From assembly GCA_963825135.1 (NCBI GenBank), contig CAWGRW010000009.1, positions 1,481,410 through 1,545,409 of the forward strand: DNA of 64,000 bases, read 5' to 3'. A program made the translations under genes and the position numbers. The notes below the pieces were generated by a model. The model worked only from the letters and a program-made list of their open reading frames with translations, searched no databases and was not told the DNA's origin. Positions 19,048 through 64,000 of the stretch are shown piece by piece (positions within the stretch are counted from its first letter, which is position 1; the number at the start of each line of letters is the position of its first letter). This DNA comes from an uncultured bacterium. GTDB lineage: Bacteria; Desulfobacterota_D; UBA1144; Nemesobacterales; UBA2774.

Positions 19048-19098
19048 TATTTCCCGCCTGTTCCCGATAATTTCTATTCGAGCCCTTGTGTCTTCCGG

Positions 19099-27358: not shown

Positions 27359-27919
27359 GTGAAATTTCTTGATATATCGTCTCCGACAACTTATTCTAAT
27401 TGCTTGACGCAGCGGGGTATTTTTGAGAAACGTTTGAGAAAATCATTTTATGCGGTAATTGCCGCCTTGATGCTGTCCGCGGTATTTTCCTGCGTTAAGA
27501 AGCCTGAGCCGGAAATCCCCGAGAGGAAGACTCTCGACCCTTCACCGACGAAAGTGGTCGATGAATTGCTCAATGCCTGGCAGCATGAGGATTTCAAAAA
27601 GGCCTTCAAATATGTCTATGCGCCCTATTCGGACGTGGACGGCTACGTGATTCAGATGAAGAACTATTTCAAGGATAATCAGATAACCATTCTCGATTAT
27701 CATATACTGGGGACGCAAATATACGACAGGACGGCTATCGTCGTCGTGGAGCTGAGACAAAAACTTAAATCCTCCAAGACGGGCACCGTCATCGAGCTCA
27801 ATCAGAAGAGCCAGTACGACCTGGGGATCTTCGAGGACAAATGGAAAGTGACTGCGGGAATCTGTATCGAGAACTGTATCGAGAAAGAGCAGCAATTAAA
27901 GGTGAACGACAGCAAATGA
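27359..27919 (+). CDS. Hypothetical lipoprotein (start uncertain)
   Basis: Lipobox AVFS|C after a hydrophobic stretch, so the real start is probably near 27437-27470. A 4-nt overlap with dapB suggests co-transcription. Confidence 0.45.
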   Translation: MKFLDISSPTTYSNCLTQRGIFEKRLRKSFYAVIAALMLSAVFSCVKKPEPEIPERKTLDPSPTKVVDELLNAWQHEDFKKAFKYVYAPYSDVDGYVIQMKNYFKDNQITILDYHILGTQIYDRTAIVVVELRQKLKSSKTGTVIELNQKSQYDLGIFEDKWKVTAGICIENCIEKEQQLKVNDSK

Positions 27920-47684: not shown

Positions 47685-50600
47685 ATGCGTTCGAAAGTCC
47701 TAAAACCTATATTTATATTTCTTCTGTTGCTGCTTTTATTGTCCGCTGTAATCGTTCTAATAATTCAGACCCATTACTTCAGGCAGTTCGTCAAGATCAC
47801 GACCAACGCCATCGTCAGCACCCTTACGGCCCAGGATTTCACAATCGGGAGCATTGAAGGCAATTTTCTTAAAGGCATGACCCTCAGGAACGTTTCTTTC
47901 CAAATAGGGAAAGAGAAGTTCGTCGATTGCGACGAGATTTACATAGATTACTCCCTCCCCCTTATACTCGACGGCTCGATGCTCTTCAGCAAGGTGATCC
48001 CGCTTCACGAAGTCAGGATGACGGGTATCCGGATAAATCTTGTCCATTACAAGGACGATACATGGAATTTTCAGGAGTTTCAGAAGTTAATGATGAAAGA
48101 AAAAAGGCCTAACCCCGACTGGAACATCTTTATCCAGAACGGTTCTATCGTGGACGCGGAAATGACGATCGAGGACGAGGCCAGGGGGGAGAACTCGATC
48201 TTCGAGCTGTCGAATGCGGATTTATCCTTGAACATGTTCAAGATAGCCGACAAAGCGGAGCTTGATCTTCGTGACGCTCATCTGACGGTCGCCTACGAAA
48301 GCATGAATTATGAAAAACTGTATTTTGAAAACATAAAGGGCAAGGCCGTATATTCGAACAAGGAGCTGCCCGATAAGTTCGATGTCGAGAGCCTCGTTTT
48401 CAATTATCTGGGCGCGGCGGTTTCGGGAAAGGGGACCATAATCAATATGATGGACCCGAAGTTTAGCCTGAAGGGGGTCATAAACGGTATCGACATCCCC
48501 GACGTCGGGACCCTCAACCTCGATATTGAGGCGCAGGGTAGTTCCTTTCAATGGAGGGATTTGCACGCTACGGGGAAGATGAGGCTCAGGGACTCTTCGG
48601 CGCTGCAGAGCGGTCTCACGGGCGGGGTCGAGTCGGTCGCCGTGGAGAACACGCACGTAGCATTAAATAAAGGCAGCCTGAGCGCAAGCTTCGGGGACGC
48701 GTCGTTTGACGGAACCATCGATCTTCTGGAGATGAGCGACAGGGCAAAGTATAACCTGGCGGACATACGGCTCGACCTCCGGTCTCTCAAGGTCCCACGG
48801 GTCCTGGAGCTTGTGGAGAAAAGAAACGGTCCTCTCGGCGAGGGTATCAACAAAAATATAGACGCGGTTATCAATTCGAAGCTGAAAGTTACAGCCGGAT
48901 GGAGCAGGTCCCGCGAGTTTACAGCCGGGCTGGATATAGGCGAAATGAGCTTAACCGGCGGAGGGGTCGGGGAGATCAAGCTAAAAGGCCCTGTATCGCT
49001 CGCGGGCTCGAAAATAGATTACGATCTGGACGCGGGCTTCCTCAAGACGAATTTCGCTCCCTTGCTTAATGATGAAAAGTACAGGAGCGATTTTAATTCG
49101 GATCTCAAGATTAAAGGGTCTTTGAGCACCGCCGAGGTCTTTCCCAAGGGCTTTGAGGTTGCGTTGCGCGGCGAGGCGGGGGCTTCAAAGATATTCGACC
49201 TGAATCTAAAAAGAGCAGTCGTGGATACGAGTTATAACGGAACATCGATCGATATCAGATCCCTTGTCCTGGAGTCCGAGCCCTTTAGCATGAATGCATC
49301 CGGCCGGCTCGGCAGCACCGGCGGAGAAGGCGTCAAGTACGAGATAAACGTAAAGAACCTCAATTTCCTCTCGAAACTCGCGCCCGCTCATCATGTCGGG
49401 GGGAGCCTCGGCCTCAGCGGCCGCATCGAGGGGAGTTTTCAGAACCCTAACATCATCGTTGACGTCACAGGCTCGGATATTACGTATGAGGAAATGCGGT
49501 TGAGGATGAAGAAGATCGAATTGAGCGCGCGCAGCTTTCTCGATATCAACGACCTGAAATTCAAAGCGGCCGCGGAAGTGAAGGGGATAGACGTGCAGGG
49601 CAGGGAAATCCAGACGGTCAATTTCAAGGCCGGGAGCAGAGGCGGCGAAATAGACGGGACGTTCGACGTACAGGAAACCGCGAAAAGGAAATATTCCTTT
49701 GATTTTAATATCAGGGATCTCGGCAAAGAGGAAACGAAGCTTGAGCTGGATAATGTCGTCATGAATTTCAGAAATGCCGTTTTTAAAAACCGTAAGCCCG
49801 TTCTTATTTCATTGTTCAAGGATAGAGTGAAGGTGAGTTCCTTCAACCTGTATCATAAAGATAACTTTATGGTCGGGGATCTCGTTCTCGGTTTCGACGA
49901 GAGCGTGGACGGATCGGTCAGGCTCGAAAAATTAAGCCTCCTCGACGCATCCGAGCTGTTGGGCATAGAATTCCCGGTAAAGGGCCAGATGACGGGAGAA
50001 ATAAAATTAGGTTCTTCGCTCAAGCATCCGGACTTGAGGGCCGATATCATGGTGAAGAACCTCGAGTATATGAAATTCAAGAGCGACGAGCTCAAGCTCT
50101 CGTTCTTTTTCTCCGATAATAAAATGGGCCTCGATTTGAAGATATGGGGCGGAAAGGAAGAGATCCTTTCCGCGGTTTGTGACGCGAAGCTGAATTTCGA
50201 TCCCGAGAATATCGATAAAAGCATCAGAGAGGCCGAGTATAGAGCGGTAATAAAATCGAAGGGAGTCGATATAAGCCCGCTGGCCATCTTCAATGAAGAG
50301 ATTCAGGAAATAAACGGGAAGCTTCTAGTGGACATCGTCGCCGAGGGAACGGGGGTCGATCCCAACGTCACCGGCAGTCTCGAGCTCCGGGATATGACTA
50401 TGAAGATACTGGCGCTGCGTAATAAAATTCACATAGATAAGGCGATCATGGATATGACCGGGAAATACGGAAAGCTCCGCCCCGCCATAATCGATACAGG
50501 CGGGGGAGAAGGGGTCTTCGAGGGCAGCGTAGATTTCCGGGACCTCTCATACACGGGTAAGGGGAAAATGTCCGGCCTGCTCGTAAAAACATATCCGGCT

Positions 50601-51578
50601 GAAGTTACCGCGAACCTCGACGGCGATCTGGAGGTGCAGGGGAAATTCATGAACGCGTCGATTAAAGGGAGCATCACGGCGAACAATGTCAAAGTCACTG
50701 TACCCGACAAACCCCTTAAGGAGATCGAGAACATAAAATTTATCGACGAAAAAGATGCGGACAAGGAAGAGTTCATATTCACAGGAGAGAAAAAAGAGGA
50801 TTTTGTCGAGGAGTACATTGCGCTTGACCTCAGCCTCGATATTCCCAAGGAATCGCGGGTAAAGGGCGCGGGTGCGAACATCGAGGTCGAAGGGAAGCTC
50901 GACGTCGATAAGAACTATAATGAGCCTTACACCATCTCGGGGAATATTGATGTCATAAGAGGTGATTACCAGTTCATGGGCAGGCTCTTCAAGATTGAGA
51001 ACGGTACGGTGAGCTTCAGAGGGAAGGATATCGCGGATCCGTTCCTCGACCTGCGCGCGACGTATGAGGTATCGGGCGTGGAGGTCTATATTAACATCAC
51101 GGGCACTGCGGAGAAACCGAGGATTCAGCTTTCGAGCGACCCTCCGCTCGATGAAAACGAAATAGTGTCCTATCTCGTGTTCGGCACTTCGTCGGAGACG
51201 CTCGGTACGGACGAGAGGGTGCAAATTCAGGAGAAAGCGGGAGAGGTTTTGGGCACGATGGCGGTGGGCGAGCTGAGGGAAGCCCTCGGCGAAGAGCTTG
51301 CCATAGACGTGATGACCATCAAGGGCGGCCAGACCGGGTTCAGGGACACTCACCTCGAGATAGGCAAATATCTGACAGACGACCTCTACATAGGGTATGA
51401 GCGGTTGTCTTATGAAAGGTATTTCTACGAGCGTTATTTCTTCAGTCCGGGTCTTCCTTCGTCCACAGTCACGGCCAACAGGGCCGTCATCGAATACAGG
51501 GTGTTCGATTTCCTGACGCTCGAGAGCGAGATAGGCGAGCAGGCGGGAGCCGACGTCTTTTTCAATTTCGACTATTGA
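47685..51578 (+). CDS. tamB: Translocation and assembly module subunit TamB-like (AsmA family, C-terminal DUF490)
   Basis: 1297 aa; N-terminal TM helix (PIFIFLLLLLLLSAVIVLII); C-terminal DUF490 signature (…GNIDVIRGDYQFMGRLFKIENGTVSFRG…DPFLDLRATYEVSGVEVYINITGTAEKPRIQLSSDPPLDENEIVSYLVFG…). No tamA adjacent. Confidence 0.8.
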   Translation: MRSKVLKPIFIFLLLLLLLSAVIVLIIQTHYFRQFVKITTNAIVSTLTAQDFTIGSIEGNFLKGMTLRNVSFQIGKEKFVDCDEIYIDYSLPLILDGSMLFSKVIPLHEVRMTGIRINLVHYKDDTWNFQEFQKLMMKEKRPNPDWNIFIQNGSIVDAEMTIEDEARGENSIFELSNADLSLNMFKIADKAELDLRDAHLTVAYESMNYEKLYFENIKGKAVYSNKELPDKFDVESLVFNYLGAAVSGKGTIINMMDPKFSLKGVINGIDIPDVGTLNLDIEAQGSSFQWRDLHATGKMRLRDSSALQSGLTGGVESVAVENTHVALNKGSLSASFGDASFDGTIDLLEMSDRAKYNLADIRLDLRSLKVPRVLELVEKRNGPLGEGINKNIDAVINSKLKVTAGWSRSREFTAGLDIGEMSLTGGGVGEIKLKGPVSLAGSKIDYDLDAGFLKTNFAPLLNDEKYRSDFNSDLKIKGSLSTAEVFPKGFEVALRGEAGASKIFDLNLKRAVVDTSYNGTSIDIRSLVLESEPFSMNASGRLGSTGGEGVKYEINVKNLNFLSKLAPAHHVGGSLGLSGRIEGSFQNPNIIVDVTGSDITYEEMRLRMKKIELSARSFLDINDLKFKAAAEVKGIDVQGREIQTVNFKAGSRGGEIDGTFDVQETAKRKYSFDFNIRDLGKEETKLELDNVVMNFRNAVFKNRKPVLISLFKDRVKVSSFNLYHKDNFMVGDLVLGFDESVDGSVRLEKLSLLDASELLGIEFPVKGQMTGEIKLGSSLKHPDLRADIMVKNLEYMKFKSDELKLSFFFSDNKMGLDLKIWGGKEEILSAVCDAKLNFDPENIDKSIREAEYRAVIKSKGVDISPLAIFNEEIQEINGKLLVDIVAEGTGVDPNVTGSLELRDMTMKILALRNKIHIDKAIMDMTGKYGKLRPAIIDTGGGEGVFEGSVDFRDLSYTGKGKMSGLLVKTYPAEVTANLDGDLEVQGKFMNASIKGSITANNVKVTVPDKPLKEIENIKFIDEKDADKEEFIFTGEKKEDFVEEYIALDLSLDIPKESRVKGAGANIEVEGKLDVDKNYNEPYTISGNIDVIRGDYQFMGRLFKIENGTVSFRGKDIADPFLDLRATYEVSGVEVYINITGTAEKPRIQLSSDPPLDENEIVSYLVFGTSSETLGTDERVQIQEKAGEVLGTMAVGELREALGEELAIDVMTIKGGQTGFRDTHLEIGKYLTDDLYIGYERLSYERYFYERYFFSPGLPSSTVTANRAVIEYRVFDFLTLESEIGEQAGADVFFNFDY

Positions 51579-52915: not shown

Positions 52916-53314
52916 ATGAATAAAAATGTAGGCTTATTCTCAATATTGCTGCTTATCGTATTCGCTGTGCCTTTGGTTTGCGCTCAGGAGGTTCGTCAGT
53001 ACGGCAACGCCTCCTGGTATGCGAGCTCTCTGCACGGCAGGAAAACCGCGAGCGGCGAATGTTATGACAAGGACGAATACACAGGAGCCCACAGGGAGCT
53101 TCCGTTCGGGACGTTGATAAGGGTCAAGAACCTGGGCAACGGTAAAGAGGTAATAGTCAGGGTGAACGACAGAGGGCCGTTTGTTAAGAGTCGTATAATC
53201 GACCTCTCGCGGGCGGCGGCTGTTACGCTTGGGATTCTGAACATGGGCACGGCGAGGGTCAGCATAGAAGTAATATCGCTGCCGGAGAGCGCCGATCCGG
53301 GATCCTCTTCATAG
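52916..53314 (+). CDS. RlpA-like double-psi beta-barrel (DPBB) protein, no SPOR domain
   Basis: Signal peptide; …GNASWYASSLHGRKTASGECYDKDEYTGAHRELPFGTLIRVKNLGNGKEVIVRVNDRGPF… matches the RlpA DPBB core. Confidence 0.75.
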   Translation: MNKNVGLFSILLLIVFAVPLVCAQEVRQYGNASWYASSLHGRKTASGECYDKDEYTGAHRELPFGTLIRVKNLGNGKEVIVRVNDRGPFVKSRIIDLSRAAAVTLGILNMGTARVSIEVISLPESADPGSSS

Positions 53315-53361: not shown

Positions 53362-54036
53362 ATGAATAATAGATTACTTCTATTATTGTTGATTCTCCCA
53401 GTTGTATTCTCATGCGCAAAAAAAAGTGTCGAATCGACCCCCATACCGCGGGAGGAAGCCCCTTCGGGCGGTTATACCGAGCGGGGCTCTACCCAGGTCG
53501 GGACGGCTTCCTGGTACGGGATAGAGGAGCACAACAATAACGCGGCCAACGGTGAGCGATTCAGCAAGTACGCCTATACGGCGGCTCACAAGAGCCTCCC
53601 GATGGGCACGGTAGTAAGGGTAACGAATTTGGAGAACGGCAGGGACGTAATTGTGGAGATAAACGACAGGGGGCCGTTTGTGAGAGGCCGTATCATCGAT
53701 CTCTCGTATGCAGCGGCGCAGTCGATCGGAATGGTCGCGAAAGGCACGGTCGAGGTCAAGGTCGAGGTCATCTCGACGCCTTCCACCAGAGGGGGCAGCT
53801 ACTTTCAGCCGCTCTACACCGTGCAGGTCGCGTCGTTCTCGGAGGAGGGCAAGGCGCTGACGCTAAAGCGGGAGCTCGACGGCGAGTACGATGACGTCAG
53901 GGTGGAGTCGATAGAGGTGAGCGGTGATAACTACTGGAGGGTCAGGGTCGGGCGTTACGATGATAAGCAGGACGCCGAGGAAACCGCTTCGAAGCTCAGA
54001 ACGGACGGGCTTTACGGAAGGGTAATAATGGAGTAG
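53362..54036 (+). CDS. rlpA: Septal ring lytic transglycosylase RlpA-like lipoprotein (DPBB + C-terminal SPOR domain)
   Basis: Lipobox VVFS|C; DPBB core (…GTASWYGIEEHNNNAANGERFSKYAYTAAHKSLPMGTVVRVTNLENGRDVIVEINDRGPF…) and SPOR-like C-terminus (…YTVQVASFSEEGKALTLKRELDGEYDDVRVESIEVSGDNYWRVRVGRYDD…). Confidence 0.8.
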   Translation: MNNRLLLLLLILPVVFSCAKKSVESTPIPREEAPSGGYTERGSTQVGTASWYGIEEHNNNAANGERFSKYAYTAAHKSLPMGTVVRVTNLENGRDVIVEINDRGPFVRGRIIDLSYAAAQSIGMVAKGTVEVKVEVISTPSTRGGSYFQPLYTVQVASFSEEGKALTLKRELDGEYDDVRVESIEVSGDNYWRVRVGRYDDKQDAEETASKLRTDGLYGRVIME

Positions 54037-54149: not shown

Positions 54150-55019
54150 ATGAACGAATTCGTAAAATCACACGGGCTCGGGAATGATTATTTCGTGCTC
54201 GACGGCTCCCGGATTTCTTTCGAGCTCACGCCCGCCGCTATAAGACTCCTTTGCGACAGGAACTACGGTATCGGCTCGGACGGTATCCTGCTCCTCGGGC
54301 CTTCGGCCAGGGCCGCCTTCGGCTTGAGGATACTCAACCCGGACGGGAGCGAAGCCGAGAAGAGCGGGAACGGGCTCAGGATATTCGCCAAGTATCTCTA
54401 CGAGCACGGTCACACGGATAAGAAGGAATTTACAATCGATACGCCCGGAGGCGTAGTCACGGCCGAGCTCGAGGTAAGAGACGGCAGGGTCCCGTTCGTT
54501 ACCGTGGAGATGGGGACCGCGACTTTCGATAGCCGGCTGATACCGGTGCGGGGGGAAGAGAGGGAGGTAGTGAACGAGGAGATGAGGATCGAGGGCGAGG
54601 TGCTCAGGTTCACGGCCGTTTCCGTCGGCAACCCGCACTGCGTCGTGTTCTCGGAGACGCTCGACGAAGGGTACACGAGGCTCCTCGGGCCCTTGATCGA
54701 GACAGCCGAGCTCTTCCCCAACCGTACGAACGTCCAGTTCGCTCACGTCCTGTCAGGCGACAGGGTCGAGATAATGATTTGGGAGCGCGGGGCCGGCTAC
54801 ACGCTCGCCTCGGGGAGCAGCTCCTGCGCGGTCGCCGCGGCATGCGTGAGGAACGGCCTTACCGACAGCAAGGTGACCGTATCCATGCCGGGCGGCGAGC
54901 TCGATATTGAAATAAGGCCGGATTGGTCGATTAGAATGAGGGGGGCGGTGGAAGAGGTCGCTTACGGCACTCTGAGCGACGATTTGATAGGAAGGATAAG
55001 CTCGCTCCCGGCGGAATGA
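54150..55019 (+). CDS. dapF: Diaminopimelate epimerase
   Basis: …HGLGNDYFVLD…, …NPDGSEAEKSGNGLR…, …VGNPHCVVF…, second catalytic Cys region …ERGAGYTLASGSSSCA…. Confidence 0.9.
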   Translation: MNEFVKSHGLGNDYFVLDGSRISFELTPAAIRLLCDRNYGIGSDGILLLGPSARAAFGLRILNPDGSEAEKSGNGLRIFAKYLYEHGHTDKKEFTIDTPGGVVTAELEVRDGRVPFVTVEMGTATFDSRLIPVRGEEREVVNEEMRIEGEVLRFTAVSVGNPHCVVFSETLDEGYTRLLGPLIETAELFPNRTNVQFAHVLSGDRVEIMIWERGAGYTLASGSSSCAVAAACVRNGLTDSKVTVSMPGGELDIEIRPDWSIRMRGAVEEVAYGTLSDDLIGRISSLPAE

Positions 55020-55088: not shown

Positions 55089-56339
55089 ATGGAAAAGCTG
55101 ATACTGACTGCCGAAACGGTTCTGCCTGTTTCCTCCAAACCCTTGAAAAACGCATCCGTACTGATCTCAGGCGGAAAGATCAGGGAGATCGGAAAATCCG
55201 CGGCCCTCAGGAAACGCTATAAAGGTATTAACGAAATGGACCTCGGAAAGGGGATACTCCTGCCCGGCTTCGTCAATGCCCATACCCATCTTGAGCTAGG
55301 GTGGATGCACGGGAGGCTCCGCGGCTTCAGGGGCTTCACAGGCTGGCTCGGGCAGATAATAAAGGAAAAAAGGGCGGGCGTTACAATCGGAGAGATAATA
55401 ACATCGGTAGCGGACGGAATCGAAGCTAACATCCGTTCGGGGGTTACGACCGTAGGGGAAATATCCTCATACGGCGGCCTGGACAAACCGCTCCTTAAAT
55501 CCTCGGGGTTAAGGGCGGTGCTCTTCAAAGAAATACTCGACAGCAATGAACGGCGGACGGATTTCTCGTCTCTCGAAAAGGGCGCGCTCTTCGAGGAAAG
55601 GCTCTTCCCGCATTCACCATATTCGTGCAGTCCAGGGGTGCTGAAAAAAACGCTCAGGTCTCACAGGCGGAACGGCGTCCCCCTCGGCATCCACCTTGCC
55701 GAGAGCCCGGACGAGGTAAAGTTCGTGAGGGGTGAGGAAAACAGCATCGAAAACAAGATATTCCCGCTTATAGATAAAACACCCTTCAGAAGGCCCCCGT
55801 CGGACTCGCCTGTCTCGTATCTCGGGAAACTGGGCCTGCTCGACGGCACGAGAATCACTCTCGTTCACATGGTGCAGGTGAGCGTGAAAGAGGCGCGGGA
55901 GCTGCGCGAGCACGACGCGGCCCTGGTTCTTTGTCCGAGGAGCAATTTTTTTCTTCAGGTCGGGGCCCCTCCCGTAAAGGAATACGCGAAGTTCGAAAGG
56001 ATAGGAATGGGGACAGACGGTTTGTCGAGCAACTATAATCTCGACTTTTTCGAGGAGATGAGGTTCCTGCATCTCCTCATGTCGGAGTCCCAGGGGCAGA
56101 GGGCCGCGTATGTTGCCGTCTATGCGGCGACGCTCGGGGGGGCAGGGGCCCTCTATCTCGAGCGTAAGACCGGCAGCATCGAGCCCGGAAAAGAGGCCGA
56201 CCTGATATTCCTCGATAACGGCGCCGGATCGGGCGACCCGTATCTCTCCGTGATTTCATCGACCGCGCGGAATGTCGGAATGGTCATGGTCCGCGGCGAA
56301 ATTATCCACTCCGGAAAAGCTGCGCGTCCGAACAGGTAG
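55089..56339 (+). CDS. Amidohydrolase-superfamily protein (MTA/SAH- or aminofutalosine-deaminase-like, or chlorohydrolase-like)
   Basis: Metal-binding LLPGFVNAHTHLELG, later …HLAES…, …GMGTDG… motifs of the amidohydrolase_1 family. 416 aa. Subfamily not resolved. Confidence 0.7.
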   Translation: MEKLILTAETVLPVSSKPLKNASVLISGGKIREIGKSAALRKRYKGINEMDLGKGILLPGFVNAHTHLELGWMHGRLRGFRGFTGWLGQIIKEKRAGVTIGEIITSVADGIEANIRSGVTTVGEISSYGGLDKPLLKSSGLRAVLFKEILDSNERRTDFSSLEKGALFEERLFPHSPYSCSPGVLKKTLRSHRRNGVPLGIHLAESPDEVKFVRGEENSIENKIFPLIDKTPFRRPPSDSPVSYLGKLGLLDGTRITLVHMVQVSVKEARELREHDAALVLCPRSNFFLQVGAPPVKEYAKFERIGMGTDGLSSNYNLDFFEEMRFLHLLMSESQGQRAAYVAVYAATLGGAGALYLERKTGSIEPGKEADLIFLDNGAGSGDPYLSVISSTARNVGMVMVRGEIIHSGKAARPNR

Positions 56340-56341
56340 AG

Positions 56342-57388
56342 ATGTCGGGTCTAATCGATAAAATCTTCGTTTACGGCACGCTCCAGCGCGGGGAAGAGAG
56401 GAGCTGCTACATGCGGGACTGCAGGCTCTCGGGGATACTCGAGGTCCCCGGGCGACTATACGATACGGGGCGGGGGTACCCGGCCGCAGTATTCGACGGC
56501 GAATCGGACTCTACGGTGTCGGGCGAGCTCTACATCATGGAGAGCCCGACTTTGAGGATCGAGGAGCTCGACAGGGTGGAGGGGGTCAGCTCGGGCCTCT
56601 TCAGAAGGTCGAGGATCAAAAACCCCGTCGCGGAATTTTTCTGCTACGAGCCCGGGCCTCTGTTAAAGGACGTCGTCTCCGGCGGGAACAGGATTCAGGA
56701 CGGGATATGGAGGACTCACTCGTCACTCGCTTTCACCGACCCCGTCGATTTCGCGCTCAGGTTCGAGTCGCATATAAAAAATAGTTACAAAGTGCATGCG
56801 GAGGAAGGCACGGACGGGATACATCATATAAAAGGACGCGTCCCTGTCATCGTCACGGCCCCTCACGCGACCGCGCACGTGCGCATGGGCAGTTTGAAGA
56901 GGCAGGAGTTCTACACGGGGGCGCTCGCCGTCATGCTTCATTCCCTGACGGGGTGTCATGCGCTCTATACGGACAGGCTGTCTCCGATAGACCCCAATTA
57001 CTCGGACGAATCCCCGTTTAAGGCGAGACTCTCCGAAATAGCGGGGAGATACGGGATAGTATTTTTACTCGACCTGCACGGCACAGGCACTGAAAGTCCG
57101 GGCGACGTCTTCCCCGGAGCGGGAAGCGGCAGGGAGTTCCTAAACGGCGGTCACCGAATATTTGACGAGCTGAATAATGCTGCCGCATCAAACGGCATAT
57201 CGCTCGGCTCTGAGGACGTATTCCCGGCTCAGAGGCAGATGACCGTTACAAGGTTCTCGGCGGCAAGATTGGGCATACCCTCGATGCAGCTCGAAATAGG
57301 CGGGGGTCTCAGGCAGCCGGGGAGTGCGCCCGGGGATTTCACGAGGCTCGTGAATTTTCTGAGGGAATTTATCGGGCGTGTTTGTTGA
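56342..57388 (+). CDS. Two-domain protein: N-terminal gamma-glutamylcyclotransferase-like (AIG2/GGACT) plus C-terminal N-formylglutamate-amidohydrolase/gamma-PGA-hydrolase-like domain (tentative)
   Basis: N-terminus IFVYGTLQRGEERSCYM…GELY…RIEELDRVEG matches the GGCT-like fold (YGTL…E). C-terminal half has …PVIVTAPHATAHV…, …LLDLHGTG…, …MQLEIG… resembling FGase-family zinc amidases. Only a 2-nt gap to the upstream amidohydrolase. Confidence 0.5.
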   Translation: MSGLIDKIFVYGTLQRGEERSCYMRDCRLSGILEVPGRLYDTGRGYPAAVFDGESDSTVSGELYIMESPTLRIEELDRVEGVSSGLFRRSRIKNPVAEFFCYEPGPLLKDVVSGGNRIQDGIWRTHSSLAFTDPVDFALRFESHIKNSYKVHAEEGTDGIHHIKGRVPVIVTAPHATAHVRMGSLKRQEFYTGALAVMLHSLTGCHALYTDRLSPIDPNYSDESPFKARLSEIAGRYGIVFLLDLHGTGTESPGDVFPGAGSGREFLNGGHRIFDELNNAAASNGISLGSEDVFPAQRQMTVTRFSAARLGIPSMQLEIGGGLRQPGSAPGDFTRLVNFLREFIGRVC

Positions 57389-60290
57389 TCCTGCCCGCAA
57401 GCACCTCTGCTATGTGCTTCACCTTCCTGCCCGTGAAGTGCTCTATCTGATGCCTGCAGGATACGCCCGAGACCGCTATGACGGTTTCGGGTGAGGCGGT
57501 TCTCACGGCGGGGAATAAACGGTCTTCACCGATTGTTCTCGAAACCTCGTAGTGCTCGCTCTCATACCCGAAGGCCCCGGCCATGCCGCAGCACCCGGCC
57601 CCGCTCTCCCTCGCTCGTATGCCCGCGAGGCCGAGCATGCCGAGGGGCGCCTCGACTCCGGTGAGAGACCTCTCGTGACAGTGCCCGTGGTATAAGACCT
57701 CCTGAGCGTCTCCGCTCCATTCAATTCCGGGCCCTCGTCCCCCCTGCGCGCGGTATAAAAACTCCTCGAGCAGAAACGAGTTCCCGGCGAGCGATTTGGC
57801 GTCTCCGTCCCCCGGCAGGAGATCGGGGTATTCGTCCCTGAACGTGAGTATGCAGCTCGGCTCAGTACCTACGACGGGGATGCCTTCGGCCGCATATTTT
57901 GCGAGGAGCGAGACGTTTTTTCGCGCCATCTCCCTGGCCTGCTCGATTCTCCCTTTGCTGAGCATGGGCCTCCCGCAGCAGGCCCTCCGCCGCTCGAGCA
58001 ACACCTCGTATCCGGCGGCCTCGAGCAGCTCGACCGCCGATTTCCCAACCTCCGGATGGTAGTACGTCACCCACGTGTCATGAAAAAAGAGTACCTTCCT
58101 GCCTGATGTTTTCGGACGCGCTTTCCTCGCGTCGAACCATGCCGTGAAGCTCTCCCCGGCCACCTTCGGCAGAGACCGCTCCCTGTGAATCCCGATACCC
58201 GATAAAATCAGTCTCGTGACCGGGTTCCCGATAAGGATGTTCGATAACCCGGGGGCGAGCGAAGCGATACGGCTCGCTTCGTGGACGTCCGAGAGAACGC
58301 GGTCCCTCATACTCATACCGTGCGCTGCGTTGTAGTTGGAAAGGAACTCGGTCTTCATCTTGGCCGCGTCCACCCTCGACGGGCACTCCGTCTTGCAGGC
58401 CTTGCACGATATGCACAGATCAAAGACGCCGTGCATCTCCTTGCCTATGAGCGCCTCTTTCCCGAGCTCCCCGGAGAGCACGGCCCTGAGCGCGTTGGCG
58501 CGCGCCCTGGTCGAGTCCCTCTCGTCGCGTGTGGCCATAAAAGAAGGACACATTACCCCCTCGCCCAGCTTCCTGCACACGCCCTGACCGTTACACATCC
58601 CCACCGCCTGCGGAAATCCGTTGTCGGACGACCAGTCGAGGCCGGTCCTGATTTCGATCGAGCCTGATCTGTTTTTGTATCTGAGGTTCTCGTCGGGCCT
58701 GGCATGGTCAACGACTTTTCCGGGATTGAATATGCCCTCGGGGTCAAACGCCTCTTTAAGCCCCTTCATCGCCCTGTAGAGCTCGGCCCCGAACAGCTTC
58801 TCGTTGAGGTAGCTTCTTTGACAGCCGTCCCCGTGCTCTCCGCTCATCACGCCCCCGTACCTGAGCGCGAGCTTGAAGGCTTCGTCCATGAGCTCTTTCA
58901 TCATCAGGACGCCTCCTCCGGTTTTCAGGTTCACAAGCGGCCTTATGTGGAGACAGCCCGCGCTCGCGTGCCCGTAGAATCCGGCCGTTGTCCCGAGCCG
59001 TTTGATAAGCTCCGACACGTCGCGCACATATTCAGGCAGTCTGTCGACCGGGACGGAGACGTCTTCTATGCACGGAATGGGTTTATGGTCGTCCCTTCTG
59101 CTCATCATTATCCCGAGTCCAGCCCGCCTCACTCCCCATATGTTCGCCTGCTCCTCCGGGCTGAAGGCGTAATTGATTTTGCGTACGCCCGTTCTTTCCT
59201 TTAACGAAGCAGCGAGACCCCCGGTCTTTTTTCTTACCTCGGCTTCGCTCGCTCCGTAGAATTCCACAACGAGAAGGGCCTCGGGCTCACCATCGACGAA
59301 CGAGAGCATGGCGCTGAAGCCCGCGTGAGACCTCGCCAGGTTTATGAGCATGGAGTCTATGAGCTCGATCGCGGAAGGGCTATGCCCGAGAATTTCGGGC
59401 ACGGCCTCCATAGCGGAAATGATGCTCCCGAACTGGAGTATGGCGAGCCCGGTAAATTCGGACCTCGGCACGAGCTTGAGAGTGAATTCGGTCGCGACGC
59501 CGAGAGTGCCTTCCGCGCCCGCGAGCAGCCTGGCCGGATTAAACGGGGATTCGAGAAAATAGTTCAGGCTGTAGCCCGACGCCCTCCGCCAGTGCTTCGG
59601 GAAGTCGCGCTTTATCGCCTCCGAATATTTTTCACGCAGCGCGGCCAGGCTCTTAAACAGAAGCCCCGCGCTCCCCCCCTCCTTCGCCCGCGCGAGGAGC
59701 CCGTCTTCGCCGAGGGCTCTGAGCTCGATTGGATTTCCGCCCTGCAGGATCCTTGCGGCCTCGACGTTGTCCCCCGCCATTCCATAGAGTATGGAATGGG
59801 CCCCCGTGGCGTTATTCCCGACGACGCCTCCCGCGGTCGCTATCCTGACCGTGGACGGGTCGGGGCCGAACATGAGTCCGTACCGCCCGAGCTGCCGGTT
59901 CATCTGCTCAATGTATACGCCCGGCTGGACGCGCGCGGTTTTTGCCTCGGGGTTTATTTCGATGACGCTGTTCAGGTACTTCGAAAAATCGATGACGAGC
60001 GCCTCTCCCACGGCCTGCCCGGCAAGGCTCGTCCCCCCTCCCCTGGGCAGTATCGCGAAGCCGAGCTTCCGTGCGGTATCGACTGCGGCCGCCGCGTCCT
60101 CCTCCGTCCTCGGTATGACGACGCCGACAGGCTCTATTTCGTAATTGCTCGCGTCCGTGCTGTAGAGGGTTCTGCTGAGGGTATCGAAACACACTTCGCC
60201 GGTTATGGCTTTCCTGAGCTCTGATTCGAGCTCTGCTCTCGAGCGGTCCGCGTCTGTATTCGACATAGGCGGGATTAGTATAACTTGCAT
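57369..60290 (-). CDS. Large FAD-linked oxidase fused to an Fe-S (CCG-domain, GlcF/GlpC-like) module; YdiJ-like 2-hydroxyacid dehydrogenase
   Basis: 973 aa; N-terminal FAD-binding PCMH domain (…RGGGTSLAGQAVG…), central FAD-oxidase C-terminal domain, then 4Fe-4S (CISCKACKTECP) and CCG-type Cys clusters (…CCGMAGAFGYE…). Confidence 0.8.
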   Translation of the reverse strand: MQVILIPPMSNTDADRSRAELESELRKAITGEVCFDTLSRTLYSTDASNYEIEPVGVVIPRTEEDAAAAVDTARKLGFAILPRGGGTSLAGQAVGEALVIDFSKYLNSVIEINPEAKTARVQPGVYIEQMNRQLGRYGLMFGPDPSTVRIATAGGVVGNNATGAHSILYGMAGDNVEAARILQGGNPIELRALGEDGLLARAKEGGSAGLLFKSLAALREKYSEAIKRDFPKHWRRASGYSLNYFLESPFNPARLLAGAEGTLGVATEFTLKLVPRSEFTGLAILQFGSIISAMEAVPEILGHSPSAIELIDSMLINLARSHAGFSAMLSFVDGEPEALLVVEFYGASEAEVRKKTGGLAASLKERTGVRKINYAFSPEEQANIWGVRRAGLGIMMSRRDDHKPIPCIEDVSVPVDRLPEYVRDVSELIKRLGTTAGFYGHASAGCLHIRPLVNLKTGGGVLMMKELMDEAFKLALRYGGVMSGEHGDGCQRSYLNEKLFGAELYRAMKGLKEAFDPEGIFNPGKVVDHARPDENLRYKNRSGSIEIRTGLDWSSDNGFPQAVGMCNGQGVCRKLGEGVMCPSFMATRDERDSTRARANALRAVLSGELGKEALIGKEMHGVFDLCISCKACKTECPSRVDAAKMKTEFLSNYNAAHGMSMRDRVLSDVHEASRIASLAPGLSNILIGNPVTRLILSGIGIHRERSLPKVAGESFTAWFDARKARPKTSGRKVLFFHDTWVTYYHPEVGKSAVELLEAAGYEVLLERRRACCGRPMLSKGRIEQAREMARKNVSLLAKYAAEGIPVVGTEPSCILTFRDEYPDLLPGDGDAKSLAGNSFLLEEFLYRAQGGRGPGIEWSGDAQEVLYHGHCHERSLTGVEAPLGMLGLAGIRARESGAGCCGMAGAFGYESEHYEVSRTIGEDRLFPAVRTASPETVIAVSGVSCRHQIEHFTGRKVKHIAEVLAGRINKHAR

Positions 60291-60448
60291 GCCGCCATAA
60301 TATCCAATTCAGGAGCGGGCCCGTCTCTGCCTCTGATCCCGATTTCGAATATTACTGACTTTGAGAAAATACTGGTATCATTAACTGGTCTCAAAATGCG
60401 CCCTTATCGCGGGCGCGCCGTCTATGTCCGAGCACGAAAAGACCTCAT

Positions 60449-61102
60449 ATGAAATTCGCGATCGTTCCCGTAAAAGACCTCTCTAAAGCAAAAGAAAGAC
60501 TGTCCTCGATACTGCCGCAGGACGTGAGGACCGAGCTTGCCTACGCGATGCTCGAGGACGTACTCACGGCGCTCAGGGGATCAAAGCTCCTGGACCGTGT
60601 ATTCGTCGTGACGATGGACAGGGCCGCGGTGAAGATAGCCGGGCGAATGGGGGTCGAAGTCATCGAAGAGACCGAGCAGAACGGGGAGAGCGATTCTGTC
60701 GACCGGGCGTCCCGGATATGCGGGGATATGGGAGCCGGATCGGTGCTCGTTATTCCGGGCGATGCCCCCCTGATAAGAACGGAGGACATCGACTTTATCG
60801 TCGCGAGGCAATCGGTATCCCCCTCGGTCATACTCGTCCCCGCGAGGGACAAGCTGGGTACGAACGCCATATTGAGAACCCCTCCCGACGCTATCCCGTC
60901 CCGGTTCGGCCACGACAGCTTCAGGAAGCACATCGAGGAGGCGGACGGGAAGGGCATCCGGGTTGAATATTACGAGAACGAAAGGGTAGGGCTCGACATC
61001 GACCACCCGGACGATTTGAGAATATTCGCCTCTGAAAAGAGCGGCACCAAAACGTATGAATTACTTTTGAGTAAGAATATCCTGGGCAAGATCAGCGAAT
61101 AA
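60449..61102 (+). CDS. CofC-like (2-phospho-L-lactate / PEP guanylyltransferase family) MobA-like nucleotidyltransferase
   Basis: N-terminus MKFAIVPVKDLSKAKERLSSILPQDVRTELAYAMLEDVLTAL matches the CofC consensus (AVIPVK.L..AK.RL…R..L..AML.DVL). 217 aa. No other F420 genes in the window. Confidence 0.5.
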   Translation: MKFAIVPVKDLSKAKERLSSILPQDVRTELAYAMLEDVLTALRGSKLLDRVFVVTMDRAAVKIAGRMGVEVIEETEQNGESDSVDRASRICGDMGAGSVLVIPGDAPLIRTEDIDFIVARQSVSPSVILVPARDKLGTNAILRTPPDAIPSRFGHDSFRKHIEEADGKGIRVEYYENERVGLDIDHPDDLRIFASEKSGTKTYELLLSKNILGKISE

Positions 61103-61127
61103 TGCGAGAGGGTCCCGCGCTACCCGC

Positions 61128-62561
61128 TCAGTAATTGAGATTGACCACCATGAGTTTCAGTTCGGTCATCTCCTCGATCGCGTACCGGACGCCTTCCTTC
61201 CCGACGCCCGAGTCCTTGACCCCCCCGTAGGGCATGTTCTCGACCCTGAAGCTCGGATAGTCGTTCACGACCACCCCTCCTACATCGAGCGCGCTGTAGG
61301 CCTTAAACGCCTTCTTGATGTCCTTGGTAAAGACCCCTGCCTGTAGCCCGTAGCGTGAGTCGTTGACGGCCTTAAGGGCCTCGTCGAAATCCCAGTACCT
61401 CTCTACGTGCACGACCGGCCCGAACACCTCGCCCTTGCTGACGTCGCATCCGGGGGGCACGCCCGTCAGTATCGCGGGCTCGATGAGAGAGCCCTCCCTC
61501 TTCCCGCCCGTAAGGAGCGTCGCTCCCCTGTCTATTGCGTCCTCTATCCACGCCATTATCCTGTCGGCTGACGCCGCGTCTATGACCGGGCCCACGTCCG
61601 TGTCCTCGAGCATCGGGTCGCCCAGCCTTAACTTTCTGGTCTCTTCGACGAATTTGCTTATGAACCTGTCGAATATCTTTTCATGCACATACATCCTCTG
61701 CACGGATATGCAGCTTTGACCGGCCTGGTAAAATGCGCCCCACGCGTTCCTGCTCGCGGCGAAATCGAGGTCGGGCGGGTCCTCGTCTATTATGGTCGCA
61801 GCGTTGCCCCCGAGCTCGAGCGTAACCTTCTTTTTCGGATATTTCCTTTTGAGCTCCCACCCTATGGCGTCGCTCCCGGTGAATGAGACCTTCTTCACTC
61901 TGTCGTCGTCTATCACGGCCTCTATCTCCGCGCCGGGCACGGGCAATATATTGAGCAGTCCGTCGGGCAGTCCCGCCTCGCTGACGACCTCTCCCAGCAT
62001 AAGCGCAGAGAGCGGGGTCTGGGACGCGGGCTTGAGCACCATCGCGTTCCCCGACGCTATCGACGGGGCGACTTTATGTGCGACGAGGTTGAGCGGGAAA
62101 TTAAACGGGGATATGCCTATGACGACCCCTAACGGAAAGCGTCTCGCCAACCCGAACATCCCATCGCTTCCGGGCGCTATGTCGATCGGGATAACCTCGC
62201 CTTCGGAGGTCCTGTTCGCTTCCTCGGCCGCGACGGAGAATGTCGTTACGGCGCGGCCCACCTCGACCCTCGCTGTCTTAAGCGGTTTTCCCCCTTCGAG
62301 CACGAGCGTCCTGGCGAACTCCTCTTTCCTCGCGGCGATCCCCTCGGCTATTTTTCTCAATATACCGCTACGCTTGTGGCTCGGGCTTTCTCTCCATTTC
62401 CCGTACGCGCTCTCGGCCGGACCTATTGAGCCTATAGCGGTCTCGCGGTCGGGGACGCTCACTATTCCGGCGGTCTCTCCGTTATAGGGGCTTCTTATCT
62501 CCCTCTTCTTTCTGCCTTTCAGCCACTTGCCGTTTATGAGGTATCCGTATTCCTTGGGCAT
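61128..62561 (-). CDS. NAD(P)-dependent aldehyde dehydrogenase
   Basis: 477 aa; ALDH motifs (…VTLELGGNAATII…, catalytic Cys in …YQAGQSCISVQRMYV…, …FTGSDAIG…). Confidence 0.9.
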   Translation of the reverse strand: MPKEYGYLINGKWLKGRKKREIRSPYNGETAGIVSVPDRETAIGSIGPAESAYGKWRESPSHKRSGILRKIAEGIAARKEEFARTLVLEGGKPLKTARVEVGRAVTTFSVAAEEANRTSEGEVIPIDIAPGSDGMFGLARRFPLGVVIGISPFNFPLNLVAHKVAPSIASGNAMVLKPASQTPLSALMLGEVVSEAGLPDGLLNILPVPGAEIEAVIDDDRVKKVSFTGSDAIGWELKRKYPKKKVTLELGGNAATIIDEDPPDLDFAASRNAWGAFYQAGQSCISVQRMYVHEKIFDRFISKFVEETRKLRLGDPMLEDTDVGPVIDAASADRIMAWIEDAIDRGATLLTGGKREGSLIEPAILTGVPPGCDVSKGEVFGPVVHVERYWDFDEALKAVNDSRYGLQAGVFTKDIKKAFKAYSALDVGGVVVNDYPSFRVENMPYGGVKDSGVGKEGVRYAIEEMTELKLMVVNLNY

Positions 62562-62598: not shown

Positions 62599-63534
62599 TT
62601 ATAAGGCCTGTTGAACCCTTACTCTATCCCGGTCGAGAATATTTATTGGTGATTGATATGAGGAGGGGATTCCGTATCCGGAATCTAGATTTCGAGTATA
62701 TCGAGCCTTGCACTTTTCCTTTATAATCCCTTTGTCGTAAGCCCTGTTGAAGAAATATTCGAGCGCGGCCTTTCCTCTCTCCCCGAGTCCTAGCGTGTAT
62801 TCGTTTACGTACATAAGCACGAATTTCTCCCCGACGTCCTCGCCGATACCCCTGCCGTATTTCATTGCGTATTCGAGCGCTTCTTTTTTGTGCGCCAGCC
62901 CGTACTCGATGCTCTCCTTATGGGCCCTCAGAATCTCCCTCTGAAGCCCCTCTCCTATGTCCCTCTTCACGACGTTAAGCCCGAGAGGGAGCGGGAGCGC
63001 CGTGTCTTTCGCCCAGAGCTCGCCTATGTCGAATAGCATGTGAAGCCCGGCGTCCTTATACGTGAGCTGTCCCTCGTGTATGAGGAGCCCGGTCTCTATA
63101 TCCCCCCTCGCGACTGAGGGCATTATCTCGTCAAACGGCATCTCAACTGGTATGAATCCGTCGGCGAATATGGAGAGGAGGAGGTAAGCGGAGGTGAGCT
63201 TTCCCGGCACTCCTATCTCTTTTCCTTCGAGGCTCGTTACGGGCTCTTTCGAAACCACTATCGGCCCGTATCCCTCTCCCATGCTCGCCCCGCAGGACAT
63301 GATTCTGTAATCGTCCTGTACTTTCAGGTATCCGTGCGCGGAGATTGCGGTAGTTTCAAGTTCTTTATTGAGCGCGCGCAAGTTCAGGGATTGAATGTCT
63401 TCTATCACGTGCTCGAAATCGATCTTGTCCGAAGTCACTTTGCCTGAGGCTATGCCGTAAAACATGAAGGCGTCGTCCGGGTCGGGGCTGTGTCCGAGTC
63501 TCATCGTTATCTTGCTCAATCTGATTCCCTCCAA
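62599..63534 (-). CDS. mqnD: Menaquinone biosynthesis (futalosine pathway) MqnA/MqnD-family protein; most likely MqnD (1,4-dihydroxy-6-naphthoate synthase)
   Basis: N-terminus …RLGHSPDPDDAFMFYGIA… resembles the MqnD motif (SPCPNDTFIFYAL) of the PF02621 periplasmic-binding-like fold. 311 aa. Confidence 0.65.
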   Translation of the reverse strand: MEGIRLSKITMRLGHSPDPDDAFMFYGIASGKVTSDKIDFEHVIEDIQSLNLRALNKELETTAISAHGYLKVQDDYRIMSCGASMGEGYGPIVVSKEPVTSLEGKEIGVPGKLTSAYLLLSIFADGFIPVEMPFDEIMPSVARGDIETGLLIHEGQLTYKDAGLHMLFDIGELWAKDTALPLPLGLNVVKRDIGEGLQREILRAHKESIEYGLAHKKEALEYAMKYGRGIGEDVGEKFVLMYVNEYTLGLGERGKAALEYFFNRAYDKGIIKEKCKARYTRNLDSGYGIPSSYQSPINILDRDRVRVQQAL

Positions 63535-63543
63535 TCGTTCTTG

Positions 63544-64000
63544 CTATCGTGAATATATCTTGATTCGGGAAATTTCTTCGGACTCGCCCAGACGGGATAG
63601 ATATTCGCTGTATCTGCCGATCGCTTCGATCTCCCTTTCGCCGAGACCGTACTTTATCCTTTCAGTCAGATATTTATAGCATACGCCCTCGTTGATTCCC
63701 GTCCTCACCGACTCGGTCTTCGCTATTTCGCCTGTAATGCCGAGCCCGTAGTCCCTGGATTTATGGAGCGCGTCCAGGTTCCGTCCCAGATCCACGCCCT
63801 CGTTTACCGCGAAGACGGCGTATACGAAAGGGAGTCCGGTCTCTCCGGTCCATATCTCCCCCAGGTCATGGACGTCATAACCCCGGGGAGGGGTATGGGT
63901 CAATTCGAGCCCCGTATCACCGATTATCATCCCCGCATCGACGTCTATTAAAAAGTCCTTGCCCGTTTCTCTCGGGTAGTAGGCCGGGGACAGGCCGTTA
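63544..64000 (-). CDS. mqnA: MqnA/MqnD-family protein, probably MqnA (chorismate dehydratase). 5' end beyond the window edge.
   Basis: …LGEIWTGETGLPFVYAVFAVNE… matches the MqnA C-terminal motif (W…TGLPFVFA.WA). The frame stays open upstream of the track ORF start to the window edge, so the gene is truncated by the window. Confidence 0.55.
   Translation of the reverse strand, partial: NGLSPAYYPRETGKDFLIDVDAGMIIGDTGLELTHTPPRGYDVHDLGEIWTGETGLPFVYAVFAVNEGVDLGRNLDALHKSRDYGLGITGEIAKTESVRTGINEGVCYKYLTERIKYGLGEREIEAIGRYSEYLSRLGESEEISRIKIYSR

Follow-up and report, generated by a model that had tools for sequence, protein, structure and literature searches.

GGACT, E. coli YtfP and PH0828 (PF06094, AIG2-like) share a fold of about 120 amino acids (aa), a YG[ST]L motif and a catalytic Glu ending the cavity helix, and the known members are either stand-alone or duplicated proteins. 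GGACT-fold enzymes require a free alpha-amine and release 5-oxoproline. The two-domain GGCT-fold protein YkqA of B. subtilis (2qik) has a GGACT-like N-terminal domain, while its second domain is another cyclotransferase fold (PMC12569754). Among amidases, the HutG family (PF05013; structures 2q7s and 2odf/Atu2144) is typified by histidine utilisation or by N-formyl-L-glutamate as substrate, while PghP/PghL (YndL; MEROPS M86, PF05908) are phage or secreted depolymerases with a His-Glu-His zinc triad, in which a bidentate Glu ligand sits at His+5, and a distal catalytic Glu. In the five-step histidine pathway, the product of the deiminase HutF is the substrate of the FGase HutG, and these two enzymes are encoded by adjacent genes. 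Our literature search found no paper connecting the GGACT and FGase-type families, or either one to futalosine.

Here, we describe a locus in which domains of these two families are joined in one protein, known to date only from Candidatus Dadabacteria (a class of the phylum Thermodesulfobacteriota). The window, that is, the whole stretch of DNA analysed, is 64 kb long, and its relevant features are as follows.

54150..55019, + strand: dapF (diaminopimelate epimerase; TIGR00652), first of a co-directional three-gene block
55089..56339, + strand: metal-dependent deaminase-like amidohydrolase, 416 aa (Amidohydro_1, E 1e-42)
56342..57388, + strand: fusion ORF with GGACT-like and FGase/PghP-like amidase domains, 348 aa
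56363..56713, + strand: gamma-glutamyl(amine) cyclotransferase-fold domain of the fusion (N-domain, aa 8-124; PF06094)
56717..57385, + strand: divergent FGase/PghP-superfamily amidase domain of the fusion (C-domain, aa 126-348), with the conserved core H175, R181, K186, D217-P-N219, K227, D244-x-H246 and Q316-x-E318
57369..60290, - strand: FAD-oxidase/4Fe-4S/CCG protein (YdiJ-like; Pfam and NCBIfam), 973 aa, convergent
62599..63534, - strand: VitK2_biosynth gene (MqnA/MqnD-type, futalosine pathway; PF02621, E 8.7e-74)
63544..64000, - strand: second VitK2_biosynth paralogue, partial at the window end (PF02621, 4.4e-16)

The initial annotation, made from the letters of this DNA alone, placed the amidohydrolase ORF (with FVNAHTHLELG) 2 nt before the fusion ORF (N-terminus MSGLIDKIFVYGTLQRGEE), and both ORFs were recovered as described, with TAG-AG-ATG at their junction. 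It had also raised the alternative that two genes were joined by a sequencing error. This was excluded, since an uninterrupted ORF of about 348 aa occurs in 58 species-representative genomes and in about 130 protein clusters with 46-96% identity. An assembly or sequencing artefact that merged two genes is therefore given a next to negligible probability: the 58 genomes are independent, and the interdomain linker is conserved and indel-free. The observation that could favour it, two gene calls at the fusion position in contig L075, concerns a collinear ORF in the same frame with one in-frame stop codon, and L075 was for this reason also rejected as a natural split of the fusion. Candidates for a separately encoded C-domain in the fusion clade were discarded as well, since P0291 (338 aa) and the 329-aa forms P0087, P0092 and P0109 have a later start, without the N-terminal FVYGTL strand, and P0283 (257 aa) comes from a contig with 2x coverage. 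Likewise, the 126-aa genes beside stand-alone C-domain relatives (L007 and L003), considered as Rosetta-stone partners, are not GGACT. The AF2 model of the fusion protein has a pLDDT of 92.2 and a pTM of 0.92, the latter indicating one compact, fixed two-domain unit as modelled. The fusion is a genuine conserved two-domain protein, and its architecture is new; as anticipated, no paper describing a GGACT-amidase fusion was found.

The assignment of the N-terminus to GGACT was confirmed by a PF06094 match to aa 8-124, which scores 50.6 bits (cutoff 22.8; E 3.5e-13) and spans model positions 1-119 of 120. The top PDB profile match of the N-domain is YkqA (1.2e-7), a sequence match of the fusion protein to YtfP was found in PDB (1xhs, 2.7e-5), and the fold search returned 1v30, 5c5z, 3jud and 2qik, placing the domain in the GGCT fold. 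In the profile alignment, L76-D77-x-x-E80 corresponds to L78-D79-x-x-E82 of human GGACT and Y11 to Y7; similarly, Y11-G-T-L14 and E80 align with Y7-G-T-L and E82 of 3jub, which gives the YG[ST]L motif. Across 30 fusions, E80 never varies, and conservation of Y11, G12 and T13 is 90% or higher. E80 directly follows helix 69-79 in the AF2 model; in human GGACT, for which the roles of Y7 and E82 have been described, E82 comes after the cavity helix (PMC12569754). These comparisons show a full predicted catalytic set, the YGTL motif plus Glu80, in the N-domain. What sets the Dadabacterial domain apart from GGACT, YtfP and PH0828 is its fusion to a metallo-amidase-fold domain, where YkqA has a second cyclotransferase fold. 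The current annotation of the fusion proteins reads 'gamma-glutamylcyclotransferase' only, with the amidase half hidden.

The Pfam check of the initial annotation held for PF06094 but not for the C-terminal half, as neither PF05013 nor PF05908 matched the window protein. Even at E<=10, PF05013 matched neither the whole protein nor the C-terminal half searched alone, and PF05908 matched two distant relatives only, both sub-threshold. NCBIfam gave no match for the C-domain, and neither phmmer, the family profiles A2/A3 nor the distant relatives P0168/P0221 yielded a relevant match in PDB. The FGase/PghP-like assignment itself is nevertheless upheld by a fold search and transitive Pfam matches. 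A profile search with the C-domain collected 1315 representative clusters; 44 of the 63 stand-alone relatives match PF05013 at E<=0.01 (best 4.2e-12), with P0168, P0221 and P0151 above its gathering score, and homology of the C-domain to PF05013 is demonstrable, at the level of profiles, through such intermediates. The C-domain also has a fold in common with solved PF05013 members. The characterised structural neighbours named among the top fold matches are the FGase entry 2q7s and PghP/PghL on gamma-Glu-Glu, and all of them act on glutamate amides. A MqnB/MTAN nucleosidase identity was rejected, the PNP/MTAN fold not being the closest structural class.

All 30 full-length homologs keep the motifs first noticed in this region (P174-H175...H179, D244-L-H246-G and E318) unchanged, and H175, H246 and E318 are also invariant across 132 distant relatives. 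In 30 fusions of 45-96% identity, little or no variation is seen at H175, R181, D217, N219, D244, H246, Q316 and E318, and Arg181, Lys186 and Lys227 are invariant basic residues. Both predicted active sites are, judging from the 30-fusion alignment, under purifying selection. Taken together, the profile matches and motifs place the C-domain in the N-formylglutamate amidohydrolase/PghP superfamily of putative metallo-amidases, within a large branch that for the most part lacks annotation; no characterised member was found for this branch.

Because the characterised neighbours act on glutamate amides and GGACT acts on gamma-glutamyl compounds, the two chemistries would be naturally consecutive. 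Our preferred reading, offered tentatively and at somewhat less than an even chance, is that the fusion is a bifunctional enzyme that splits an amide bond of a glutamate residue by hydrolysis and cyclises the product to 5-oxoproline. The amidase domain would either take an acyl or aminoacyl group off the alpha-amine (FGase-like chemistry) or cut a gamma-glutamyl link (PghP-like chemistry), so that the product is a gamma-glutamyl compound whose alpha-amino group is free. This product would then be converted to 5-oxoproline by the cyclotransferase domain, with release of the amine, gamma-glutamyl compounds being the substrates cleaved by GGACT-fold enzymes (PMC12569754). The proposal of the initial annotation, release plus cyclisation to 5-oxoproline of a gamma-glutamyl or N-acyl-glutamate compound, is plausible. 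A Hydantoinase_B/oxoprolinase-family gene lies within the same window.

The metal site of the C-domain bears on this reading. H175, H246 and E318 have PghP-like spacing, but, in a mapping by motif order alone, His+5 is not acidic; in the 132 distant relatives, numbered from H175, His or Gln occupies position +4 and an invariant Arg position +6. The bidentate Glu zinc ligand of PghP/PghL thus appears to be replaced in the fusion, so that the metal site, and metal dependence itself, are putative. This counts against the bifunctional reading, as does the failure of the window protein to match any FGase or PghP sequence model. Unlike those depolymerases, the Dadabacterial protein is cytoplasmic and fused. 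The missing ligand would suit a protein with one catalytic domain, the other being binding or regulatory (for example, a GGACT fold that recognises a gamma-glutamyl moiety), and part 2 of Paulinella crTP is a precedent for a non-catalytic GGCT fold (PMC12569754). However, crTP differs in that its Glu82 is replaced (PMC12569754), whereas the Dadabacterial clade shows no change in either set of catalytic residues, and we consider this alternative improbable.

The upstream amidohydrolase matched 42 NCBIfam models, the best being NF006269 (aminofutalosine deaminase; 198.4 bits, below the cutoff of 320). Its PDB matches (3lnp, 7lkj, 3v7p, 4f0r and 2imr) range from about 1e-21 to 1e-29, and with 7lkj, the H. 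pylori aminofutalosine deaminase, it shares the deaminase metal and catalytic motifs HxH, H-L-A-E (HxxE) and TDGLSSN; MTA/SAH-deaminase structures match equally well. Relatives are named MTA/SAH or aminodeoxyfutalosine deaminase in their source records. These matches put it in the nucleoside/nucleobase branch as a predicted deaminase of 5'-substituted adenosines, resembling aminofutalosine or MTA/SAH deaminases. The coupling of the two genes, as originally proposed, stands physically, with a gap of at most 25 nt in 57 of 58 genomes, several of them overlapping. A shared pathway is weakened, because nucleoside-type deamination is not obviously related to gamma-glutamyl amides, and this best-conserved partner gene does not fit a glutamyl-amide pathway.

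The persistence of this gap while both flanks are rearranged would favour a relay, in which the deaminase and then the fusion act on one substrate, as in HutF (amidine deiminase) to HutG (N-acyl-glutamate amidohydrolase) with an added cyclotransferase, or in a lineage-specific step of the futalosine (menaquinone) pathway. The two genes belong to the same superfamilies as HutF-HutG, a HutF-type model matches the amidohydrolase weakly (NF006681, 71 bits), and HutG is the founding FGase; here, though, the deaminase is aminofutalosine/MTA-deaminase-like, a cyclotransferase is added, and no hutH/U/I-type genes were found in the 64-kb window or related loci. For the futalosine version, mqnA/D-type genes abut the fusion in the deep clade. 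In these deep-branching relatives, a convergent VitK2_biosynth gene lies immediately 3' of the fusion (as also in the L041 annotation), roughly 0-130 nt from its stop, with a few overlaps, in most of the loci L029-L067. In the window, the VitK2_biosynth genes are 5 kb from the block. The second match covers the C-terminal half of the model and its frame is open to the window edge, as in the L001 orthologue; a truncated gene was rejected, since the ORF simply continues past the window end. We judge the relay a doubtful explanation, with little probability. An obligate three-activity module of deaminase and fusion on a single metabolite (HutF to HutG-like plus cyclisation, possibly futalosine-tied and so far Dadabacteria-only) is likewise offered as a long shot.

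Between the fusion and the mqn genes, the YdiJ-like gene, cofC and an aldehyde dehydrogenase gene form a subclade-specific insertion. The YdiJ-like gene, with its own 3' end, overlaps the 3' end of the fusion by 20 nt but is absent from the 42-48% identity clade, and is probably not part of the system. A 3.2-kb insertion in L051 was also set aside, as it contains two unrelated minus-strand genes. Trimming or catabolism of gamma-polyglutamyl chains (tails of folate or F420, or fragments of poly-gamma-glutamate), in which the amidase would free oligo-gamma-glutamate from an acyl head group or cut the chain and the cyclotransferase would degrade gamma-Glu-Glu, could have drawn on the nearby cofC, but this neighbourhood is confined to the insertion. 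Neither the PghP-type Glu ligand nor PF05908 membership was found, and the Dadabacteria block has no ligase partner, so that this alternative appears quite unlikely.

The dapF gene noted upstream was verified by its match to TIGR00652, at 235 bits (cutoff 115). All loci with enough upstream sequence have dapF directly 5' of the amidohydrolase; this is true even of the deep clade, whose upstream genes are otherwise all different, and the linkage of dapF to the block is kept across the whole Dadabacteria class. The tight coupling of dapF, amidohydrolase and fusion is plain from these loci, and the three genes are predicted to be co-transcribed. However, dapF is a housekeeping biosynthetic gene, and gene order in the streamlined Dadabacteria lineage may combine unrelated housekeeping genes.

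The constant presence of dapF, two RlpA-like lytic transglycosylase genes just upstream of the block in this subclade, and the peptidoglycan degradation predicted for Dadabacteria (PMC8115339) point to a cell-wall context for the substrate. Under our bifunctional reading, the leading substrate candidate would be the peptidoglycan stem-peptide fragment L-Ala-gamma-D-Glu-mDAP, followed by gamma-polyglutamyl tails of cofactors or polymers. The initial annotation had offered cell-wall recycling as an alternative; in its full form, the amidase strips L-Ala from this fragment or cuts gamma-D-Glu-mDAP, the cyclotransferase yields mDAP and 5-oxo-D-proline, and dapF is co-expressed for DAP homeostasis. 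Against a cell-wall substrate, the link in peptidoglycan is gamma-D-glutamyl, but the known substrates of GGACT enzymes are L-gamma-glutamyl compounds, and we know of no GGACT-fold enzyme that acts on D-gamma-glutamyl amides. Use of released meso-DAP needs no dapF, and to our knowledge dapF has no mechanistic role in mDAP release or reuse, which also weighs on the bifunctional reading. In addition, the deep-clade neighbourhood lacks the RlpA genes, and neither a muropeptide transporter nor an AmpD/AmpG-type gene was found around the block. This full recycling scheme is thus rather unlikely, though worth keeping in view.

If the inferred chemistry of the bifunctional enzyme is true, the fusion would by itself convert a blocked gamma-glutamyl amide into 5-oxoproline and a free amine. 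This would be a new way to degrade or salvage isopeptide-linked glutamate in a widespread uncultivated lineage already believed to recycle peptidoglycan. A large FGase-superfamily branch, mostly missed by current Pfam/NCBIfam thresholds, also comes to light here. Genes for stand-alone distant relatives of the C-domain share operons with those for RimK-type ATP-grasp and Mur-ligase-type enzymes, families that make glutamate-containing amide bonds, which favours the bifunctional reading; our search found no paper on this trio. Their recurrent pairing points to a system for peptide or polymer turnover that has gone unstudied, and the C-domain family, with its 1315 clusters, may mark an undescribed system that both makes and breaks a glutamate-containing peptide or polymer.

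Both ORFs were found exactly as the initial annotation had described them, with the amidohydrolase stop lying 2 nt ahead of the fusion start (junction TAG-AG-ATG):
55089-56339, + strand: amidohydrolase, 416 aa, including FVNAHTHLELG
56342-57388, + strand: fusion protein, 348 aa, beginning MSGLIDKIFVYGTLQRGEE

The genes for dapF (diaminopimelate epimerase), amidohydrolase and fusion were not separated by any terminator-like site. Searched against 5.8 billion proteins, the fusion gave about 130 relatives, nearly all of 344-359 aa, with full query coverage and 46-96% identity, and the inter-domain segment (aa 125-145, SSLAFxDPVxFALxFE) was conserved without indels in an alignment of 30 sequences. 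Scanning one genome per GTDB species, we found the ORF uninterrupted at 58 loci. The fusion is a real ORF; these relatives and loci speak against two genes joined by a sequencing error, an origin that the initial annotation had raised. The sole "split" case (L075 583-1635, a Thermodesulfobacteriota MAG) is a collinear ORF called as two genes at a single in-frame stop near residue ~108; the stop is due to a sequencing error or marks a pseudogene.

Pfam placed GGACT (PF06094) on aa 8-124 of the fusion (E 3.5e-13), as proposed earlier, and the fusion-family profile aligned to YkqA (1.2e-7), YtfP (4.6e-7), and mouse and human GGACT. Y11-G-T-L14 aligned with Y7-G-T-L of human GGACT (3jub), and the invariant L76-D77-x-x-E80 with its L78-D79-x-x-E82. 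Tyr7 and Glu82, which define the superfamily, are the pocket and catalytic residues (PMC12569754). Another candidate catalytic residue, E62 (GELY), was ruled out by the alignment to human GGACT, which points to E80. Because of the Pfam match and the Y11/E80 alignment, the N-terminal domain is predicted to be an active cyclotransferase on every testable feature.

The C-terminal domain profile retrieved 1315 clusters at E<=1e-3 and 890 at E<=1e-10 among 1.84 billion representatives. PF05013 (Pfam FGase) was matched by 44 of the 63 stand-alone relatives (best E 4.2e-12); the gathering score was reached by three of ten scanned relatives, the remaining seven being below it or without a match. Since these intermediate relatives match PF05013, it follows, as judged from sequence, that the domain is homologous to FGase beyond fold similarity. 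The earlier assignment thus holds for the superfamily, but the fusion protein itself is not a strict member of PF05013 or PF05908. Across 132 distant representatives, H175, H246 and E318 were invariant and R181, D217, N219, D244, Q316, K186, K227, T192 and T301 nearly so. The array H175...D217/N219...H246...E318 resembles H40...H78/T80...H103...E165 of PghP in order and spacing; in PghP, H40 and H103 bind zinc and E165 acts as the distal catalytic Glu (PMC6506827). In contrast, nothing in the domain corresponds to the bidentate Glu ligand that PghP/PghL carry at His+5, and the metal site is putative; position +4 after H175 is His in 93/132, or Gln, and +6 is Arg, invariant or nearly so.

MAGs carrying the 58 fusion loci were mostly labelled Candidatus Dadabacteria, Thermodesulfobacteriota or Deltaproteobacteria (Dadabacteria being a class of Thermodesulfobacteriota in NCBI taxonomy), with other labels on four. 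Three of these four, labelled Ignavibacteriales or Spirochaetia (L035, L063, L066), carry the identical amidohydrolase-fusion-mqn block at 42-47% identity, with dapF wherever the contig reaches that far; their labels probably reflect mis-binning or mislabelling, not wider distribution. Among the 150 best C-domain representatives, the GGACT N-terminus was confined to about ten closest clusters, so the fusion is a single, lineage-specific invention. The rest were ~220-aa stand-alone proteins or had the following architectures:
N-terminal domain of 600-690-aa proteins: P0149, P0157, P0163, P0164, P0170, P0172, P0206, P0209, P0236, P0237, P0260
SLH-anchored surface forms and tandem duplications: P0151, P0154, P0221; P0140, P0167, P0200

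In P0149 and P0157, the two 600-690-aa forms that were scanned, Pfam matched nothing in the ~450-aa remainder.

The window order is TamB-like, aminotransferase (-), two RlpA-like DPBB genes, dapF, amidohydrolase and fusion; convergent to these lie a 973-aa FAD/Fe-S oxidase, cofC, aldehyde dehydrogenase and two VitK2_biosynth (MqnA/D-type, mqn) genes:
9541-13242 and 47685-51578, + strand: AsmA/TamB-type proteins, both very large (1233 and 1297 aa), inside one 64-kb window
52916-53314 and 53362-54036, + strand: pair of RlpA-like DPBB genes (lytic transglycosylase-type) in tandem; a SPOR domain is present in the second
57369-62561: FAD-oxidase/4Fe-4S/CCG (YdiJ-like, 973 aa), cofC and aldehyde dehydrogenase block

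Elsewhere in the window, ORFs 26053-27333 (426 aa), 14164-15417 (417), 1064-2143 (359), 13256-13933 (225) and 27359-27919 (186) had no Pfam match at E<=1e-4.

Comparison of the 58 genomes showed that deeper branches (42-48% identity) lack the TamB, aminotransferase, RlpA, oxidase, cofC and aldehyde dehydrogenase genes at this locus; their block reads release factor, CcsA-like, dapF, amidohydrolase and fusion, with mqn, mqn, HD hydrolase, hisF and hisA opposite. Because the other neighbours are absent there, dapF-amidohydrolase-fusion opposite the mqn genes is the invariant core. Compared with loci L029-L067, the oxidase-cofC-aldehyde dehydrogenase block separates the fusion from the mqn genes as an insertion specific to the subclade; the convergent oxidase and fusion genes share 20 nt at their 3' ends. 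The RlpA-like genes, adjoining dapF upstream, are conserved only in the window's subclade. The fusion starts within 25 nt of the amidohydrolase stop in 57/58 genomes (median 19, with several overlaps of 1-8 nt), the exception (L051) bearing an unrelated 3.2-kb insertion.

The upstream ORF matched Amidohydro_1 (E 1e-42). Its best NCBIfam model was "aminofutalosine deaminase family hydrolase" (198 bits, under the cutoff of 320), followed by MTA/SAH-type and 5'-deoxyadenosine deaminases, with HutF at merely 71 bits. PDB matches (1e-21 to 1e-29) included H. pylori aminofutalosine deaminase 7lkj, 3v7p, 2imr and MTA/SAH deaminase 4f0r; HxH, H-L-A-E and TDGLSSN motifs occur both in the amidohydrolase and in 7lkj, and its orthologues carry source annotations of either MTA/SAH deaminase or aminodeoxyfutalosine deaminase. 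Given these matches and the adjoining mqn genes, the protein is most likely an aminofutalosine (or related 5'-substituted adenosine) deaminase. Its predicted reaction is adenine-ring deamination, not amide hydrolysis, and no futalosine intermediate is known to bear a gamma-glutamyl or N-acyl-glutamate group. The common pathway first read from amidohydrolase, FGase and GGACT together therefore lacks chemical support, although the tight conserved coupling is real; a relay between the fusion and its deaminase partner is a lesser alternative.

GGACT-fold enzymes require a gamma-glutamyl amide with a free alpha-amino group; FGase-type enzymes deacylate the glutamate alpha-amine, and PghP-type enzymes cleave gamma-glutamyl links. 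The protein presents a fixed assembly of two intact domains, each predicted to be catalytic, which may act one after the other: the amidase domain, by an FGase-type or PghP-type reaction, would create the substrate from which the cyclotransferase domain would yield 5-oxoproline and an amine. The conserved Arg and Lys residues of the C-terminal domain would suit an acidic substrate. The leading candidate, itself rather unlikely, is the peptidoglycan stem peptide (L-Ala-gamma-D-Glu-mDAP), favoured by the invariant dapF linkage, the subclade's RlpA genes and the peptidoglycan degradation predicted for Dadabacteria (PMC8115339); however, its glutamate has the D-configuration, and dapF would have no mechanistic role there. 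Polyglutamyl tails (folate, F420, gamma-PGA) are a lesser alternative. A set 35 kb upstream of the fusion (18085-21905, -) recalls gamma-glutamyl-cycle components:
20337-21905, - strand: Hydantoinase_B/oxoprolinase-family gene, overlapping a Memo-like gene (19099-20361)
18085-19047, - strand: M19 membrane dipeptidase, after the Memo-like gene

The Hydantoinase_B/oxoprolinase gene is compatible with 5-oxoproline handling; no Hydantoinase_A gene adjoins it in the window.

In four independent contexts (L004/L005, L006, L070, L072), genes of distant stand-alone C-domain relatives share operons of overlapping genes with those for a RimK-type ATP-grasp ligase and a Mur-ligase-domain protein. The FGase-like, RimK/GSH-S-type ATP-grasp and Mur_ligase_M genes span:
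L004, 7001-9886
L005, 1235-4120
L006, 7001-9994
L070, 5920-9879
L072, 1651-5863

The hosts, outside Dadabacteria, are a Lachnospiraceae MAG, a Bacteroidales MAG and three metagenome contigs, and the FGase-like member either stands alone at 248-269 aa or makes up the N-terminal domain of a protein of ~600 aa. A literature search found no paper on the fusion or on the RimK/Mur-ligase trio. The superfamilies of both domains are already known and the predicted chemistry is conventional; new are the two-domain architecture, which is confined to a single class-level lineage and whose coupling to a nucleoside-type deaminase is rigidly conserved, and the membership of the C-terminal domain in a large FGase-superfamily branch mostly missed by current models. 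The RimK/Mur-ligase neighbours connect the family at large with glutamate-type amide bond metabolism, and their operon is possibly an undescribed system that makes and turns over a glutamate-type peptide or polymer.
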